Shown piece by piece: positions 3,185 through 10,692 of a stretch of 14,831 bases of DNA; the first letter of the stretch is position 1, and the number at the start of each line of letters is the position of its first letter. The position numbers were made by a program, and so were the translations under genes. Under the pieces are notes generated by a model, which saw nothing but the letters and a program-made list of their open reading frames with translations, was not told where the DNA came from and did no database searches. Source of the DNA: a virus. The DNA lies in UHGV virus genome UHGV-0154790; one strand, given 5' to 3'.

Positions 3185-3618
3185 GCAGAATAACCGCGAT
3201 TATCTCCGCTCTGGTTATCTGCATCATCGTCTGCCTGTCATGGGCTGTTAATCATTACCGTGATAACGCCATCGCCTACAAAGAGCAGCGCGATAAGGCC
3301 ACATCCACAATCGCTGACATGCAGAAGCGTCAACGTGACGTAGCAGAACTCGATGCCAGATATACAAAGGAGCTTGCTGATGCTAACGCGACTATCGAAA
3401 GTCTCCGTGCTGATGTTTCTGCTGGCCGTAAGCGCCTGCAAGTCGCCGCCACCTGTGCAAAGTCAACGACCGGAGCCAGCGGCATGGGCGATGGAGAAAG
3501 CCCAAGACTTACAGCAGATGCTGAACTCAATTATTACCGTCTCCGAAGTGGAATCGACAGGATAACTGCGCAGGTTAACTACCTGCAGGAGTACATCAGG
3601 ACGCAATGCCTGAAATAA
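3181..3618 (+). CDS. Rz: i-spanin Rz
   Basis: 145 aa; N-terminal signal-anchor TM ([18 protein letters not shown]) then a charged, probably coiled-coil periplasmic domain; ATGA overlap with the R stop; contains Rz1 in another frame. Confidence 0.85.
3380..3565 (+). CDS. Rz1: o-spanin Rz1 (outer-membrane lipoprotein, embedded in Rz)
   Basis: Lies within Rz in a different frame; AAGGAG (3366-3371) 8 nt upstream of ATG 3380; signal peptide [20 protein letters not shown] with lipobox VSAC; Pro-rich mature part ([13 protein letters not shown]). Confidence 0.75.
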
Positions 3619-3651
3619 TTTTTTTTTGCAAATCACAAAGTCCATTTAATG

Positions 3652-3677
3652 AGCCTCGCGATGCGGGGCTTTTTTTA
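3652..3677 (+). terminator. intrinsic terminator after the lysis cassette
   Basis: GCCTCGC-GAT-GCGGGGC stem-loop followed by TTTTTTT. Confidence 0.6.
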
Positions 3678-3825
3678 CATCTGAATTTCACAGCGCATCT
3701 CACGCGCATATTACATCACCCGAGCCTTTCAGAAAGTTGAGCCTGAGAACTGTCGTATATGGTGGCGACCATCTCGGGGCGGCTTTTCTGTGAGACAGGC
3801 TCACTTTCTAAAAGGTAAAGACGCT

Positions 3826-4350
3826 ATGAATAATCATTCAGTTATTCCATCCTTCGACTTCCGAGAAATGGTGCAAGCCAAAAACGGAGAGGTCGTTACC
3901 ACATCCAGAAAAATTGCCAAGTACTTCGGCAAGCGACACGGTGATGTTCTCAGGAAAATCGAGCAGGTTAAGGCTGATTGCTCGCGTGAGTTTAGCCAAC
4001 GCAATTTTGCGTCGGCTGATTATATCGATGAGCAGGGCAAGGTTCGCCCGATGTACAGCCTGACGAAAGATGGCTGGATCATGGTTGTGATGGGGTTCAC
4101 CGGGAAAGCTGCTGCGGCAATCAAGGAGAGCTATATCGCAGCATTCAACTGGATGGCAGAGCAACTGAGCCGCCGCATGGCAATTGGCGAAGAAATGCAG
4201 CACCGCTACGCCATCAAAGAAACACGCTCAAAGCTGAAAGGTACGATCGGCAGTCGGTTAATGAACGAACGGAAGAAAGAGAAGCGTGTCCTGGCTGTCG
4301 AGCATGAATACATCTTGCAGGTGACACAGCCTGAACTGCTGATTAATTGA
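3826..4350 (+). CDS. Rha-family phage regulatory protein
   Basis: N-terminal TTSRKIAKYFGKRHGDVLRKIE...YSLTKDGW is typical of the Rha domain; ATG 3826 has an AAGG RBS, whereas the track's GTG at 3790 has none. Confidence 0.75.
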   Translation: MNNHSVIPSFDFREMVQAKNGEVVTTSRKIAKYFGKRHGDVLRKIEQVKADCSREFSQRNFASADYIDEQGKVRPMYSLTKDGWIMVVMGFTGKAAAAIKESYIAAFNWMAEQLSRRMAIGEEMQHRYAIKETRSKLKGTIGSRLMNERKKEKRVLAVEHEYILQVTQPELLIN

Positions 4351-4708
4351 AGATGTCATTACAAAGCCTATCTACTGGTGGGCTTGATAATGAAACCGGA
4401 ATTTATTCTGGGCAACCAGTTACGGCAGTACCGCGAAACAACCCAAGCCAGTAAGTGGGGAAATAACACTGGCAGCCACTGAAAGATGAACCTCCTGCCT
4501 TATGGCAAAAAAGATTCTTTGTGGTGGCGGACTGATGGAAAGACATCGGTTATTGCAGAGGCCATTCAATGAGTGGTCTCGACAATGGCTTATACCCTAC
4601 ACGGGATAACTTAACTGATATCCCTTTTAACGGATAAACGGAGCCAATAATGGCAGAGAATGTCGGCATTATGGCAGTGAAATTTGGATAAATCGGAGAT
4701 TAGTACAT

Positions 4709-5059
4709 ATGCCGCCACGAACCCCAAAAGCCTGCAGTGTTCGCGGCTGCCGCCATACCACAACTGACCCGTCAGGCTATTGCGAAAGCCACAAAAGTGA
4801 AGGCTGGAAGCAATACAAGCCGGGCCAGTCCAGACACCAGCGCGGTTATGGTTCGAAATGGGATGTTATCCGTGAACGTGTGCTCAAGCGTGACAAAGGA
4901 CTGTGTCAGTTATGTCTGCGTGGTGGTGTGGTACGTGAGGCGAAAACCGTTGACCACATCATTCCTAAAGCGCATGGCGGCACAGATGCCGACAGCAATC
5001 TGCAGAGCCTGTGCTGGCCGTGCCATAAGGCGAAGACGGCCCGTGAACGGCTAAAGTGA
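4709..5059 (+). CDS. HNH endonuclease (terminase-associated, HK97 gp74-like)
   Basis: 116 aa; N-terminal Cys cluster (CSVRGCRH...YCESH) and C-terminal HNH motif DHIIPKAHGG...SNLQSLCWPCHKAKT; lies directly upstream of the terminase genes. Confidence 0.9.
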   Translation: MPPRTPKACSVRGCRHTTTDPSGYCESHKSEGWKQYKPGQSRHQRGYGSKWDVIRERVLKRDKGLCQLCLRGGVVREAKTVDHIIPKAHGGTDADSNLQSLCWPCHKAKTARERLK

Positions 5060-5184
5060 TAATAATTCTCAACTGTCTGAGGGGAGGGGCGGGTCAAATC
5101 CCTGTGACCTGGCGTCTTCCGGACTGCCCGCCCCATCGTTTTTTTATACCCGCGAAAAATGAAATTTAACCAGGAGTGCCGCAT
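5060..5184 (+). other. candidate cos region with GC-rich inverted repeats
   Basis: Intergenic between HNH and terS; GGGGCGGG (5086-5093) pairs with CCCGCCCC (5127-5134), nested GGTCA/TGACC (5092-5096 / 5105-5109), then a T9 run (5139-5147). HK97-type phages place cos between the HNH gene and terS. Confidence 0.4.
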
Positions 5185-5679
5185 ATGGCTGGAACGGCGG
5201 GGCGTTCCGGGCGTCGCCCCAAGCCAACGGCGCGCAAGGCGCTGGCCGGAAACCCCGGCAAGCGAGCCCTGAACAAAGATGAACCTGTTTTTACGCCCAT
5301 CAAAGGTGTTGAGCCACCAGAGTGGTTCGCTGAAGAAGATCTCCCTCTCGCCACGATCATGTGGCAACTGACAACCAAAGAACTCTGCGGTCATGGCCTG
5401 TTGTGCGTGACTGACCTCGCGGTGCTTGAGCGGTGGTGCGTGGCCTATGAGTTCTGGCGACGTGCCGTGAAAAATATTGCCATACAGGGCAACACCATCA
5501 CCGGTGCAATGGGCGGCAGGGTCAAAAATCCGGAGCTGACCGCCAAAAAAGAACAGGAGTCCGAGATGAGCAGCACGGGGGCAATGCTCGGACTCGACCC
5601 CAGCAGCCGCCAGCGTCTGATTGGCCTGGCGGGGCAGAAGAAAGCCACTAACCCGTTTCTGAAAATCATCGAGTCATGA
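5185..5679 (+). CDS. terminase small subunit (P27-like family)
   Basis: AGGAG (5172-5176) 8 nt upstream of ATG 5185 (the track's GTG 5176 lies inside the RBS); basic N-terminus; stop overlaps the terL start (ATGA). Confidence 0.8.
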
Positions 5680-7409
5680 GCCGGAAATCTTACCCCAACG
5701 TAAATGCTGCCAATCAGTATGCCCGTGATGTTGTGCGCGGAAAGATTGTGGCCTGCCAGTTTGTGATTCAGGCCTGCCAGCGCCATCTTGATGACCTGAT
5801 GGCGGAAAAAAGTAAGTCGTTTCGTTACCGCTTCGACAAGGACCTGGCTGAACGGGCCGCCAAATTTATTCAGCTGTTGCCGCACACCAAGGGTGAGTGG
5901 GCATTCAAGAGGATGCCCATCACGCTGGAGCCGTGGCAGCTATTTGTGGTCTGCTGTGCGTTTGGCTGGGTCAATAAAGGGTCCCGGCTGCGCCGCTTCC
6001 GGGAGGTGTATACCGAAATCCCCCGTAAGAACGGCAAATCGGCAATCTCTGCCGGTGTTGCCCTGTATTGTTTTGCCTGTGATAACGAGTTTGGCGCGGA
6101 AGTGTATTCCGGTGCCACGACAGAGAAACAGGCGTGGGAAGTCTTTCGCCCGGCGCGACTGATGTGTAAACGCACACCCATGCTGACGGAAGCGTTCGGG
6201 ATTGAGGTTAACGCCTCAAACATGAATCGTCCGGAGGATGGCGCGCGGTTTGAACCGCTGATCGGTAACCCCGGTGATGGTTCATCACCCCACTGTGCGG
6301 TGGTGGATGAATATCACGAGCACGCCACCGATGCGCTTTACACCACGATGCTTACCGGGATGGGGGCGCGACGTCAGCCACTGATGTGGGCCATTACTAC
6401 TGCCGGGTACAACATTGAGGGGCCGTGCTACGACAAGCGGCGGGAAGTCATCGAGATGCTCAACGGCTCGGTGCCCAACGATGAACTGTTCGGGATCATC
6501 TATACCGTTGATGAAGGTGATGACTGGACCGACCCGCAGGTGCTGGAAAAAGCTAACCCGAATATTGGCGTGTCGGTTTATCGCGAATTTTTGTTAAGTC
6601 AGCAGCAGCGTGCGAAAAATAACGCCCGTCTGGCAAACGTCTTTAAAACAAAACACCTCAATATCTGGGTGTCGGCGCGTTCGGCGTATTTCAACCTGGT
6701 GAGCTGGCAGAGCTGCGAGGATAAATCACTGACCCTTGAGCAGTTCGAGGGGCAACCGTGCATTCTGGCCTTTGACCTGGCGCGTAAGCTGGATATGAAC
6801 AGCATGGCGCGACTTTATACCCGCGAGATTGACGGTAAAACGCATTACTACAGTGTGGCTCCGCGCTTCTGGGTACCGTATGACACGGTGTACAGCGTCG
6901 AGAAAAATGAAGATCGCCGGACAGCCGAACGCTTTCAGAAATGGGTGGAAATGGGCGTTCTGACCGTTACCGATGGTGCGGAGGTGGATTATCGCTACAT
7001 CCTCGAGGAGGCCAAAGCGGCGAACAAAATCAGCCCGGTCAGTGAGTCACCCATCGACCCCTTCGGGGCGACCGGGTTGTCACATGACCTTGCTGATGAA
7101 GACCTGAATCCCGTCACTATCATTCAGAACTACACCAACATGTCCGACCCGATGAAAGAGCTGGAAGCGGCAATTGAATCGGGGCGCTTTCATCATGATG
7201 GCAATCCCATCATGACCTGGTGTATCGGCAATGTGGTCGGCAAAACCATTCCGGGTAACGATGATGTGGTGAAACCCGTCAAAGAGCAGGCGGAAAACAA
7301 AATTGACGGTGCAGTTGCGCTGATTATGGCGGTTGGCAGAGCCATGCTGTACGAGAAAGAAGACACGCTGTCTGACCACATTGAGTCCTATGGGATCCGC
7401 TCGCTTTAA
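5676..7409 (+). CDS. terminase large subunit (HK97 type)
   Basis: 577 aa; P-loop-like PRKNGKS with acidic motifs further on (VVDEYHE); size and position between terS and portal. Confidence 0.9.
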
Positions 7410-7420
7410 CTGAGGTAATT

Positions 7421-7603
7421 ATGATCATGCTGATTCTCGCGCCTCTGGTGGGCGTGCTGGGGGCGCTTTTGCTGGCGTATGGTGCCTGGCTGATTTATCC
7501 CCCGGCGGGGTTTGTTGTTGCCGGGGCGTTGTGCCTGTTCTGGTCGTGGCTGGTAGCGCGATATCTCGACCGTACACAGCTGTCTGTTGGTGGAGGTAAA
7601 TAG
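7421..7603 (+). CDS. small hydrophobic membrane protein (60 aa, two predicted TM segments)
   Basis: GAGG RBS 6 nt upstream of ATG 7421; two hydrophobic stretches ([23 protein letters not shown] and [16 protein letters not shown]); its stop TAG 7601-7603 overlaps the portal GTG start and its 3' end carries the portal RBS. Confidence 0.6.
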
Positions 7604-8844
7604 TGTTCTTTTCGGGATTATTTCAACGAAAAAGTGACGCACCGGTGACCACGCCAGCAGAGCTGGCGGATGCCATCGGGTTGTCCTACGACACCTATAC
7701 CGGAAAGCAGATCAGCAGTCAGCGGGCCATGCGACTGACGGCGGTTTTTTCCTGCGTCAGAGTGCTGGCAGAGTCGGTCGGGATGTTGCCCTGCAATCTG
7801 TATCACCTGAACGGCAGCCTGAAGCAGAGAGCCACCGGCGAACGTCTGCATAAACTGATCTCCACGCATCCCAATGGCTATATGACGCCGCAGGAGTTCT
7901 GGGAGCTGGTGGTCACCTGTCTGTGCCTGCGGGGAAACTTTTACGCCTACAAAGTGAAAGCATTTGGCGAAGTGGCTGAACTGCTGCCCGTCGATCCCGG
8001 CTGTGTGGTACCGAAGCTTAACAGTAGCTGGGAGCCGATCTATCAGGTCACATTCCCGGATGGCTCCACGGATGTACTGAGCCAGGAGGATATCTGGCAT
8101 GTGCGCACGCTGACGCTGGACGGACTGGTGGGGCTGAATCCCATCGCCTATGCCCGCGAGGCAATATCGCTGGCAGCTGCGACCGAAGAGCACGGGGCCA
8201 GACTGTTCAGCAATGGCGCGGTGACGTCGGGTGTGTTGCGTACAGAGCAGACGCTGTCAGATCAGGCTTATGAGCGCCTGAAGAAAGATTTTGAGGAGCG
8301 TCACACCGGGCTTGGCAATGCTCACCGCCCGATGATCCTTGAGATGGGGCTGGACTGGAAGTCGATGGCGCTGAACGCCGAGGACAGCCAGTTCCTGGAA
8401 ACCCGCAAGTTTCAGCTTGAAGAAATCTGTCGTCTGTTCCGGGTGCCGTTGCACATGGTGCAGAACACCGATCGCGCCACCTTCAACAATATCGAAGAGC
8501 TGGGGCTGGGATTTATCAACTATTCACTGGTGCCGTATCTGACCCGCATCGAACAGCGGATCAACACCGGACTGGTACGAAAAAGTAAGCAGGGCGTTTA
8601 TTACGCCAAATTTAACGCCGGGGCGTTACTGCGCGGGGATATGAAGTCCCGTTTTGAAGCCTACGCCACCGGGATTAACTGGGGAATTTACTCTCCCAAT
8701 GACTGCCGCGACCTGGAAGATATGAATCCGCGTCCCGGTGGTGATGTCTATCTCACACCGATGAACATGACCACGAAACCCTCCGATGGCAGTAAAGCCG
8801 GTAAGCAGAAGGATAACGCCAATGCAGACGAAACAACGTCTTGA
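7603..8844 (+). CDS. portal protein (HK97 family)
   Basis: 413 aa; GTG start with GGAGG 6 nt upstream; size and position after terL; C-terminal acidic, low-complexity tail. Confidence 0.85.
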   Translation: MFFSGLFQRKSDAPVTTPAELADAIGLSYDTYTGKQISSQRAMRLTAVFSCVRVLAESVGMLPCNLYHLNGSLKQRATGERLHKLISTHPNGYMTPQEFWELVVTCLCLRGNFYAYKVKAFGEVAELLPVDPGCVVPKLNSSWEPIYQVTFPDGSTDVLSQEDIWHVRTLTLDGLVGLNPIAYAREAISLAAATEEHGARLFSNGAVTSGVLRTEQTLSDQAYERLKKDFEERHTGLGNAHRPMILEMGLDWKSMALNAEDSQFLETRKFQLEEICRLFRVPLHMVQNTDRATFNNIEELGLGFINYSLVPYLTRIEQRINTGLVRKSKQGVYYAKFNAGALLRGDMKSRFEAYATGINWGIYSPNDCRDLEDMNPRPGGDVYLTPMNMTTKPSDGSKAGKQKDNANADETTS

Positions 8845-9472
8845 TGTACCGCTGAGTCTGAAATCTGTCAGTGACTCCGGTGAGTTTGAAGGGTATGGCT
8901 CCGTCTTTGGTGTAAAGGACAGCCACGATGATGTGGTGATGTCCGGGGCATTTGCTGCTTCCCTGCGGGCGTGGAGTGACAGAAAAGCGTTACCTGCGCT
9001 GCTCTGGCAGCACCGCATGGATGAACCCATCGGTGTTTACACCGAAATGAAGGAAGACGATGTCGGGCTTTACGTCAGGGGACGGTTGCTTATTGATGAT
9101 GATCCCCTCGCAAAACGCGCACATGCACACATGAAGGCCGGTTCGTTAACCGGCCTTTCTATTGGGTACGTCCTGAAAGACTGGGAATACGACCGGAGCA
9201 AAGAAGCCTTTCTGCTGAAAGAAATCGACCTCTGGGAAGTCAGCCTGGTGACGTTCCCGTCTAACGACGAGGCGCGGATCAGCGACGTCAAGAACGCACT
9301 GGCCCGCGGGAAAATCCCCGAACAGAAAAAAATCGAAAGAGTCCTGCGTGATGTCGGACTCTCCCGTACCCAGGCCAAAGCATTCATGGCCGGGGGCTAT
9401 GGCGCACTGTCCCTGCGCGACGCTGAGGATGTGGGCTCTGCACTGAATGCACTGAAAAATCTGAACTTCTAA
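8822..9472 (+). CDS. prohead maturation protease (HK97 gp4-like)
   Basis: AAGGA 8 nt upstream of ATG 8822 (ATG 8786 has no RBS); position between portal and capsid; HK97-protease-like length. Confidence 0.8.
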   Translation: MQTKQRLDVPLSLKSVSDSGEFEGYGSVFGVKDSHDDVVMSGAFAASLRAWSDRKALPALLWQHRMDEPIGVYTEMKEDDVGLYVRGRLLIDDDPLAKRAHAHMKAGSLTGLSIGYVLKDWEYDRSKEAFLLKEIDLWEVSLVTFPSNDEARISDVKNALARGKIPEQKKIERVLRDVGLSRTQAKAFMAGGYGALSLRDAEDVGSALNALKNLNF

Positions 9473-9486
9473 TCAGGAGAAATACG

Positions 9487-10692
9487 ATGGCGGTTGATAT
9501 TAAAGATGTCGAACAGGTCGCGCAGGAGCTGCAGCAGAAGTTTGACGACTTCAAAGCAAAGAACGACAAGCGCGTGGATGCGATTGAGCAGGAAAAAGGC
9601 AAGCTTGCCGGGCAGGTGGAAACCCTGAACGGGAAACTAAGCGAGCTGGAAAATCTCAAAAGCGACCTTGAAAAAGAGCTGCTTGAGCTGAAACGTCCGG
9701 CTGGTGGAGCGCAAAATAAACTGGCCACCGAGCATAAAGAGGCGTTTGTGGGCTTCCTGCGTAAAGGCCGTGAAGACGGTCTGCGCGATCTGGAGCGTAA
9801 GGCATTGCAGGTGGGTACCGATGAAGACGGTGGCTACGCCGTGCCGGAAGAACTGGATCGCAACATTCTTAACCTGCTGAAAGATGAAGTGGTGATGCGT
9901 CAGGAAGCCACGGTGATCACCGTTGGCGGTTCCGACTACAAAAAACTGGTGAATCTGGGCGGTACGGCTTCCGGATGGGTGGGGGAAACGGATACGCGAT
10001 CCCAGACTGCCACCTCCAGACTGGAGCTGATTGAACCTCTCATGGGGGAAATCTACGGCAACCCGCAGGCTACCCAGAAAATGCTGGACGATGCCTTCTT
10101 CAACGTGGAGGCCTGGATCAACAGCGAGCTGGCAACCGAATTTGCCGAACAGGAAGAAATTGCCTTTACCTCAGGCGATGGCACCAAGAAGCCGAAAGGG
10201 TTCCTGGCGTATGAATCCATCGATGAAACCGACAAGGTCCGGGCGTTCGGCAAACTTCAGCATATTGTATCCGGCGAAGCGACCGCGGTGACCGCAGACG
10301 CCATTATCAAACTGATTTACACGCTGCGTAAGGCACACCGCACTGGCGCGAAGTTCATGATGAACAACAACAGCCTGTTTGCCATCCGTCTGCTGAAAGA
10401 CACCGAGGGTAACTATCTGTGGCGTCCGGGGCTGGAGCTGGGGCAGCCGTCCTCTCTGGCGGGTTACGGTATCGCTGAAAACGAACAGATGCCGGATATC
10501 GCCGCTGATGCGAAAGCCATTGCATTTGGTAACTTCAAACGGGGTTACACCATCGTTGACCGTATCGGCACCCGCATTCTGCGTGACCCGTACACCAATA
10601 AACCGTTTGTCGGTTTTTATACCACCAAGCGCACCGGCGGGATGCTGGTCGATTCGCAGGCCATCAAACTGCTGAAGATTGCAGCGGCGTAA
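9487..10692 (+). CDS. major capsid protein (HK97 fold) with N-terminal scaffold-like delta domain
   Basis: 401 aa; N-terminal ~100 aa charged and coiled-coil-like (ELQQKFDDFKAKNDKRVDAIEQEKGKLAGQVETLNGKLSELENLKSDLEKELLELK); AGGAG RBS; follows the protease gene. Confidence 0.9.
   Translation: MAVDIKDVEQVAQELQQKFDDFKAKNDKRVDAIEQEKGKLAGQVETLNGKLSELENLKSDLEKELLELKRPAGGAQNKLATEHKEAFVGFLRKGREDGLRDLERKALQVGTDEDGGYAVPEELDRNILNLLKDEVVMRQEATVITVGGSDYKKLVNLGGTASGWVGETDTRSQTATSRLELIEPLMGEIYGNPQATQKMLDDAFFNVEAWINSELATEFAEQEEIAFTSGDGTKKPKGFLAYESIDETDKVRAFGKLQHIVSGEATAVTADAIIKLIYTLRKAHRTGAKFMMNNNSLFAIRLLKDTEGNYLWRPGLELGQPSSLAGYGIAENEQMPDIAADAKAIAFGNFKRGYTIVDRIGTRILRDPYTNKPFVGFYTTKRTGGMLVDSQAIKLLKIAAA

Follow-up and report, generated by a model that had tools for sequence, protein, structure and literature searches.

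The cos site of phage HK97 is cleaved to leave 10-nt 3′ overhangs; the minimal site for its small terminase spans +15 to +29, with a C:G pair at +21 and the adjacent A-tract being essential, and the HNH protein gp74 stimulates cos cleavage (PMC9410871, PMC11331095). In particular, the site for the HK97 small terminase needs the motif ACCCG together with an A/T tract (PMC11331095). In the Shigella phage SfI, the ends of the virion DNA have been sequenced directly in run-off reactions, which revealed a 10-nt gap, 5′-TGCCCGCCCC-3′, relative to the prophage; the authors concluded that SfI packages its DNA by a cos mechanism and excluded headful packaging, and the polarity of the overhang is not stated in their paper (PMC3636060).

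Here we analyse a 14,831-nt stretch of viral DNA (the window, by which we mean the whole of that stretch) in which the initial annotation had proposed a cos site for HK97-type packaging between the HNH and terS genes. The genes relevant to this proposal are as follows:

3790–4350: Rha-like regulator (Pfam)
4709–5059, + strand: HNH endonuclease gene, the 116-aa product of which has a zinc ribbon at its N terminus and a catalytic HNH domain; packaging-associated, adjoining the proposed cos
5185–5679, + strand: terS, the small terminase gene, 164 aa, P27 family (Pfam Terminase_4, PF05119, E 5.6e-20)
5676–7409, + strand: terL, the large terminase gene, 577 aa (Pfam TerL_ATPase and TerL_nuclease)
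7603–8844: portal (Pfam Phage_portal)
8786–9472: S78 prohead protease (Pfam Peptidase_S78)
9487–10692: HK97-type capsid protein (Pfam Phage_capsid)

The order of the Pfam domains (HNH, Terminase_4, TerL_ATPase with TerL_nuclease, Phage_portal, Peptidase_S78, Phage_capsid) is that of an HK97-style module, and it bears out the suggestion that the HNH gene sits beside cos and just upstream of terS and terL. The 125-bp intergenic region that had been singled out, 5060–5184, is indeed exactly the non-coding gap between the end of the HNH ORF (5059) and the ATG of terS (5185), and it includes the terS Shine-Dalgarno sequence AGGAG at 5172–5176. The HNH protein matches Pfam HNH (PF01844) with an E value of 2.2e-16, shares 38% identity over 65 aa with HK97 gp74 (E 3e-10), and can be matched over its full length, including the N-terminal zinc ribbon, to the HNH nicking endonuclease of Geobacillus virus E2 (5h0m; E 5.9e-12). 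Similarly, TerL can be aligned to HK97 gp2 over 462 aa, with 27% identity (E 2e-29). (Note that a 358-bp conserved stretch lacking a convincing ORF is present upstream of the HNH gene, at 4351–4708.)

The elements that we distinguish in the gap are listed below, together with the points at which the records of four Shigella phages begin; signed positions are relative to the cut at 5134/5135:

5060: position 1 of the SfII record
5081–5104 (−54 to −31 from the cut): upstream element, a G-box (GGGGAGGGGCGGG) and then TCAAATCCCTG; contains the left arm (5086–5093) of an inverted repeat
5118: position 1 of the SfV and SfIV records
5121–5124: GGAC directly 5′ of the cohesive-end 10-mer, with the probable bottom-strand nick at 5124/5125
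5125–5134: cohesive-end sequence TGCCCGCCCC (the cosN equivalent), identical to the SfI end; contains the right arm (5127–5134) of the inverted repeat
5135: position 1 of the SfI record
5139–5147 (+5 to +13): a T7 run and then AT, a conserved A/T tract that is part of the downstream cos block rather than the tail of a terminator
5148–5169 (+14 to +35): ACCCGCGAAAAATGAAATTTAA, the putative small-terminase binding site (cosB equivalent)

The 10-mer at 5125–5134 corresponds letter for letter to the cohesive end of SfI and occurs only once in the window; the SfI record ends with GGACTGCCCGCCCC and starts with GTCGTTTTTTTATACC. A megablast search against phage records identified SfV, SfIV, SfI and SfII as Shigella phages whose records start inside the gap. 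Those of SfV and SfIV are 100% identical to 5118–5184 of the window, and the cos site annotated at bp 59–125 of SfII (PMC3772137) corresponds to this same interval. With a sensitive blastn search we also found phiP27 (AJ298298), in which a misc_feature termed 'cos-site' (21806–21815) consists of CGCCCGCCCC, directly after GGGAC and at the homologous position. Moreover, the record of the Edwardsiella phage EPP-1, the assembly of which was corrected by its authors with PhageTerm (PMC11043334), ends with GTAC followed by TGCCCGCCTC and has as its first base the homologue of window position 5135. The SfI, phiP27 and EPP-1 genomes, which are of this cos type and were each worked up separately, thus put their ends at one junction inside 5060–5184. 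The gene module and the ends of SfI, phiP27, EPP-1 and HK97 all support the proposed location, between HNH and terS, of a cos site for HK97-type packaging, and we consider it highly probable that the gap serves as cos for a temperate phage of SfV/SfI/phiP27 type that makes its ends in the HK97 way. By analogy with the relatives in which the position has been shown by experiment, the cut would run from 5124/5125 to 5134/5135 and would expose the 10-nt cohesive sequence. This type of cos is already known, having been mapped experimentally in near-identical phages, and our finding is in this respect correct but ordinary. (A full-text literature search for the 10-mer TGCCCGCCCC returned unrelated papers only, and the cos treated in a paper on a Serratia phage is a different one, of the 5′-overhang type. 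Note also that the prophage carrying this window could be defective elsewhere.)

We entertained the idea that packaging might instead be headful, from a pac site, or that cos might lie elsewhere, with the gap being a mere translational or regulatory spacer. One such other place could be 4351–4708, the 358 bp of which are conserved without encoding a convincing ORF. However, in the HK97-like phage mEp234 the homologue of 4351–4708 is found ~800 bp inside the right end, upstream of a gp74-like gene, and the HK97-type cos junction is found further right than this homologue; the ends of SfI, phiP27, EPP-1 and HK97, moreover, all fall in the HNH–terS gap. Headful packaging is likewise at odds with the defined 10-nt end of SfI, from which its authors concluded cos (PMC3636060), and with the grouping of TerL with HK97 gp2, and a pac site was ruled out on the grounds that the relatives have defined 10-nt ends. 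Thus, the data from relatives give neither of the outcomes that the initial annotation had named as contrary to its proposal, namely physical ends mapping elsewhere (for example in 4351–4708) and headful packaging, and we regard either as extremely improbable.

The gap DNA is 96–100% identical to that of SfI, SfV, SfII and SfIV, which are lambdoid phages that convert serotype, and these phages share with the window the 10-mer TGCCCGCCCC, its flanks and the order HNH-cos-terS-terL. They differ from it by a few substitutions (for instance, the base at +1 is G in SfI and A in the window and SfV, and these phages have GAC where the window has GGC, at 5111–5113) and in the genes upstream of HNH: in SfV the HNH gene comes directly after Rz/Rz1, whereas the window has the Rha-like gene and the 358-bp spacer upstream of HNH. 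The Stx2e phage phiP27, which is the namesake of the P27 terS family, has an overall DNA identity of 83% and the same architecture and spacing (GGGGAGGGGCGGGTCAAATCCCTG ... GGGAC, then CGCCCGCCCC, then GTCAAATTTTTACACCCGCGAAA), although the first base of its 10-mer is C rather than T and its downstream box diverges after CCGCGAAA (ATTAAAAATTT).

The initial annotation had suggested an alignment to the cos regions of HK97-like phages, and with HK97 itself the ends prove to be in register with 5125–5134. The HK97 record ends with GGGCAGGGGGGGGATCAAATCTTCAAAACCTTTGCCCCAAATGAC CGCCGCCAAA and starts with GTTTGAATTTAACGCTAACCCGATTTTTTTAG. When HK97 and the window were anchored at the cut, 50 of 130 bases were shared; offset 0 was the best of the 25 offsets, and none of 5000 shuffles reached this value. 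In both phages a G-run and TCAAATC are found exactly 34 nt before the cut (HK97 GGGGGGGGATCAAATC), GAC directly precedes the 10-nt end, ACCCG and an A/T tract follow downstream within approximately +14 to +30, and TerL and HNH are homologous; the ATG of terS is at a similar position, +50 in HK97 and +51 in the window. The overhang sequence, in contrast, is different in HK97 (CGCCGCCAAA), and in the window ACCCG is 4 bp closer to the cut, with CG between ACCCG and the A-tract. Furthermore, the HK97 HNH protein has no zinc ribbon at its N terminus (PMC3592412), and the distance from the end of its gene to cos is ~320 bp as compared to 65 bp in the window. The small terminases show no sequence similarity: HK97 gp1 falls in no Pfam family, and comparison of the window terS with gp1 gave an E value of 6.6 by blastp and a probability of 0.06% by hhalign; a Foldseek comparison was not significant either. 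(The window terS also had no sequence match in the PDB.) The register with HK97, taken together with the gap seen in the SfI run-off reactions (recessed 5′ ends leave a gap, whereas with 5′ overhangs the reads from the two sides would overlap by 10 nt), argues that the cohesive end is probably a 10-nt 3′ overhang.

To assess conservation among relatives we used a terS-based scan that retained one genome per bacterial species, and which yielded 43 loci with terS 49–99% identical, in hosts that include Shigella, Edwardsiella, Citrobacter, Serratia, Photorhabdus, Xenorhabdus, Morganella, Gilliamella and even Cupriavidus. An alignment of the 37 distinct sequences homologous to 5078–5170, the window among them, contains a single 1-nt indel over 93 nt. 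Mean pairwise identities in this set were as follows:

G-box and AAATCYCT: 0.79
spacer after the G-box element: 0.43
GAC and 10-mer: 0.71
spacer between the 10-mer and the T-run: 0.41
T-run: 0.89
ACCCGCGAAAAATGAA block (+13 to +29, alignment columns 71–87): 0.935
terS codons: 0.84 at positions 1 and 2; 0.45 at position 3

The difference between the blocks (0.71–0.94) and the spacers (0.41–0.43), the latter evolving approximately as fast as the largely synonymous third codon positions of terS, suggests that the boxes and their spacing are under strong constraint, that is, purifying selection. As judged from this alignment, it is the conservation of sequence blocks and spacing, and not the inverted repeats, that is the standout feature of the gap. 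Within the upstream element (5081–5104), G−47, G−46, AAAT (−39 to −36) and CT (−33/−32) are invariant or nearly so. Around the bottom-strand nick, A5123, C5124, G5126 and C5127 are invariant in all 37 sequences, and (G/T)AC is found directly before the 10-mer in HK97, phiP27, SfI and EPP-1. Further downstream, T is invariant at +7 to +9, and the T-run lies at a constant distance from both the cut and ACCCGCG in all of the sequences; ACCCGCGAAAAATGAA is nearly invariant at 5148–5163 (+14 to +29), and CCGCGAAA is invariant in 37 of 37. The distance of this downstream box to the cut is constant while that to the terS start ranges from 29 to 101 nt, which argues that the box belongs to cos rather than to the translation signals of terS. 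Its near-invariance, its position, which is the same as that of the HK97 site, and the common presence of ACCCG plus an A/T tract speak for +14 to +29 (5148–5163) as a putative terS binding site; against it speak the lack of sequence similarity between the window terS and HK97 gp1 and the non-significant Foldseek result.

These features extend beyond the aligned set. The 16-mer ACCCGCGAAAAATGAA is present in at least 120 viral contigs, AC.GC occurs in register in 53 of 59 further distinct viral-contig flanks, and the HNH-cos-terS module is found in 1190 of 5426 complete E. coli genomes and also across the Enterobacterales. (Note that one locus with a double cos, L071, was entertained as a satellite; it actually consists of two HNH-cos-terS copies separated by an IS3-type element.)

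The initial annotation had emphasized nested inverted repeats and a T9 run as a structure suited to terminase binding and nicking. Both repeats exist: the outer one, GGGGCGGG (5086–5093) with CCCGCCCC (5127–5134), is a perfect 8-bp repeat with its arms 33 nt apart, and the inner one, GGTCA (5092–5096) with TGACC (5105–5109), is a perfect 5-bp repeat. The T9 run, however, is actually a T7 run (5139–5145), and because 2 nt of the outer left arm belong to both repeats, only one repeat at a time can form its full stem. Perfect inverted repeats of 8 nt or longer are not beyond chance in DNA of this kind: they were found in 174 of 2000 dinucleotide-shuffled versions of the 125 bp (8.7%) and in 58 of 589 125-nt segments of the whole sequence (~10%). 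Among the 37 relatives, standard pairing of the outer repeat was seen in 72.6% of cells as compared to 74.6 ± 1.3% in shuffles (471 of 500 were as high) and 59–69% when the arms were slid; four of its eight pairs are broken in 22–24 of the 37 sequences, and a change of both partners is seen at only one of the outer pairs (6 sequences have C-G for G-C), at which 24 of the 37 sequences do not pair. For the inner repeat, pairing was seen in 57.8% of cells and in 57.4% in shuffles, and just 7 of the 37 sequences have the A-T pair that closes it. RNAalifold returned −1.73 kcal/mol for the alignment, with a covariation term of −0.02. On the whole, pairing among the relatives was judged no better than in the shuffled or slid controls, and the role envisaged for the repeats in terminase binding and nicking was not upheld.

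It could still be that the repeats are themselves what is recognized, either as a cruciform or hairpin extruded at cos or through a symmetric dimer bound to both arms. In favour of this, a perfect 8-bp GC repeat flanks the region upstream of the cut, its left arm being within the conserved G-box and its right arm within the cohesive end, but the complementarity is lost when an arm changes, as in the locus L011, where GGGGGAGG faces CCAGCCCC, and there are variants in viral contigs in which TGACC has become CGGCC, CAGCC or TGGCC without a compensating change. Moreover, HK97 does not have the repeat and yet has kept the boxes. When the frequency of 8-bp repeats in shuffles and the shuffle-level pairing of the inner repeat are also taken into account, recognition of the repeats as such seems very unlikely. 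Rather, the GC-rich complementarity arises incidentally, from the presence of a G-rich box opposite a cut site rich in C, and is not a recognized hairpin; comparison of the relatives suggests that each arm lies in a box of its own, conserved separately from the other, and supports neither a selected hairpin nor a selected terminator.

The same evidence bears on whether the gap contains, instead of or besides cos, a Rho-independent terminator of the HNH or late-lysis transcript; the initial annotation had raised this alternative for the HNH transcript. Such a terminator would be formed by the GC-rich stem (5086–5093 with 5127–5134, extendable to 5083–5137) and the U7 that follows. In its favour, the extended stem of a hairpin predicted for the RNA from 5082 to 5150 (−26.8 kcal/mol) stops 1 nt before the U7, and the T-run is conserved. 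This hairpin has a loop of 33 nt and so is not compact, though, and a consensus terminator scan made no call in the region; its stability is ordinary (z = −1.57; equal stability was reached by 15 of 200 shuffles), and folding of the RNA of the whole gap (5055–5190) gave z = 0.00. Furthermore, the terminator alternative has no comparative support: pairing of the stem is not maintained among the 37 relatives, the covariation term of RNAalifold is near zero, and the register of the T-run is fixed to the ACCCGCG box and the cut and not to any stem. In lambdoid phages antiterminated polymerase reads the late genes across cos on circular or concatemeric DNA, and a terminator would thus have no obvious role at this position. 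We therefore think a terminator unlikely; some termination by the long-looped hairpin could occur with the RNA of this particular window, but nothing indicates selection for it. (Note that a search of 3600–5700 against Rfam at E values up to 1 found no RNA family, and that a tRNA-like reading of GGGTCAAATCC was discarded when ARAGORN found no tRNA in the window.)

The cos site proposed here follows the same logic as that of lambda (cosQ-cosN-cosB), in that a nicking site is followed by a downstream small-terminase binding region beside the terS gene; the further conserved element upstream could, by this likeness, act like cosQ. In other respects the two sites are different. Lambda has a 12-nt 5′ overhang, a Nu1-type small terminase with repeated R sites, and an IHF site, whereas 5060–5184 has no match to the IHF consensus WATCAANNNNTTR with up to 1 mismatch and no R-like repeated elements (the direct repeats in the gap do not go beyond chance pairs of 6–9 nt), terS belongs to a different family, and an HNH partner is present. 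A lambda-type cos was ruled out for want of an IHF site and of R-site repeats and because terS is of the Terminase_4 and not the Nu1 family.

These comparisons are consistent with the following mechanism of packaging. The P27-family small terminase would recognize concatemeric DNA at ACCCGCGAAAAATGAA (5148–5163, +14 to +29). TerL and the adjacent HNH protein, as the terminase complex, would then make two nicks 10 nt apart, at 5134/5135 on the top strand and at 5124/5125 on the bottom strand, so that strand separation would leave the 10-nt end TGCCCGCCCC, and packaging would proceed rightwards, terS first, to the next cos. Of the two nicks, that on the bottom strand, at the invariant AC^nGC (^ marks the nick), would most likely be made by HNH, and that on the top strand, the context of which is variable, would most likely be made by TerL, placed by distance. 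The G-box and TCAAATC (−54 to −31), which are common to the window and HK97, may serve as a second recognition element.

The assignment of the two nicks draws on how unevenly their surroundings are conserved. At the bottom-strand nick, A−12, C−11, G−9 and C−8 are invariant in the 37 relatives (2.0 bits each), whereas around the top-strand nick the values fall to 0.5 bits at −1 and 0.4 bits at +1. The HNH endonucleases of GVE2 and phage gamma have CG^GT as their nicking site, corresponding to AC^CG when the opposite strand is read (PMC3592412). AC^CG is also the bottom-strand site of HK97 (GAC^CGCC) and of approximately half of the relatives; the window has GAC^TGCC, which is not canonical. That the invariant AC^nGC at the bottom nick is the motif of the closest characterized HNH relatives, and that the top nick is variable, suggests from the sequences that HNH cuts one strand and TerL the other. 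A published proposal likewise has one nick made by HNH and the other by TerL (PMC11331095, PMC12967558). Against an intrinsic AC^NG specificity of the HNH protein, HK97 gp74 and lactococcal HrdP are on their own non-specific nucleases (PMC3592412, PMC12967558).

A more specific version of this idea, which we put forward tentatively and hold at less than even odds, is that the two nicks are specified differently. The bottom nick might be specified by an intrinsic AC^NG(C) specificity that the zinc-ribbon HNH protein would have inherited from the nicking enzymes of the N.phiGamma/GVE2 family, which would explain why flanking bases are invariant at the bottom nick only, whereas the top nick might be made by sequence-independent TerL exactly 10 nt away, positioned by terS at +14 to +29. 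The G-box/TCAAATC element would in that case perhaps be a docking or termination (cosQ-like) site for TerL or HNH rather than for terS; as the element is found in register in HK97, with which the window shares homologous TerL and HNH proteins but no sequence relationship between the small terminases, this is a reasonable guess and no more.

What the analysis adds to a known type of cos, namely the map of conserved blocks and the observation that the two nick sites are unequally conserved, is modest. The map may nevertheless provide an annotation rule for sites of this kind (G-box/TCAAATC, 20 nt or, in one relative, 21 nt, GGAC and N10, a T-run, and ACCCGCGAAAAATGAA), and it offers a testable hypothesis to explain the need of HK97-type terminases for an HNH partner. 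For the prophage, the exact cos fixes the ends of the virion genome, with the left end at 5135 and the right end at 5134 one genome length upstream. A cos site at this position also predicts that packaging is unit-length and non-permuted, with little generalized transduction, and satellites or cosmids would have to carry this sequence for phages of this type to package them.

The two nick sites that we infer within the cos gap differ in conservation: the context of the bottom-strand nick is fixed, whereas that of the top-strand nick is loose. In particular, the motif AC|nGC at the bottom-strand nick is invariant in all 37 sequences of an alignment of the window with its distinct relatives (alignment columns 45-62; window 5121-5138), whereas the bases flanking the top-strand nick are nearly free to vary (0.5 and 0.4 bits in the same alignment). 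Among prophages of Photorhabdus, Xenorhabdus and Morganella (loci L025-L040 and L044), approximately 30-70 extra bp lie between ACCCGCGAAAAATGAA and the terS ATG, and the distance of the cos boxes is fixed relative to the cut and not to terS. Note that in Xenorhabdus the extra bp contain a conserved CTTTCACTGTTTTTGAGCACGGGAGGTGCTG; the DNA inserted after the cos box in these prophages may have a regulatory role.

Three further features of the window were noted:

4351-4708 (358 bp), ORF-poor stretch between the Rha-like gene and the HNH gene; longest ORF 50 aa
5185-5210, terS N-terminus; N-terminal arm with Arg7-Ser8
5596-5620, terS residues 138-145; invariant C-terminal DPSSRQR

The first ~300 bp of the ORF-poor stretch (to ~4659) are 96-98% identical to DNA of the HK97-like phages mEp234 (38457-38759), N7 and E212, in which the matching DNA is unannotated and lies directly upstream of a gp74-like HNH gene. 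The comparison with mEp234 ruled out this stretch as the cos site, and a search of Rfam returned no match for 4351-4708.

The terS product carries Arg7-Ser8 in positions identical to those in HK97 gp1 (MADKRIRSD), where both residues contact DNA, and its DPSSRQR is reminiscent of the HK97 Glu126-Ser127-Arg128 clamp. Because overall sequence similarity between the two proteins is absent, these terminal likenesses may be coincidental.

In the viral contig IMGVR_UViG_2711768073_000020 (L071:3100-7000) HNH-cos-terS is present, complete, twice, 2.9 kb apart. Between the copies, on the opposite strand, are the HTH_Tnp_1 and rve ORFs of an IS3-type element. This doubling is an IS-associated rearrangement or a junction joining two prophage segments; it does not represent a satellite.

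A search of complete E. coli genomes with window 4709-5700 gave a top identity of only 97.8%, so that the window probably derives from a different strain or from a relative within the enterobacteria. Of the 5426 genomes, 1190 carry the HNH-cos-terS module, at up to four copies per genome and on plasmids in 15 places.
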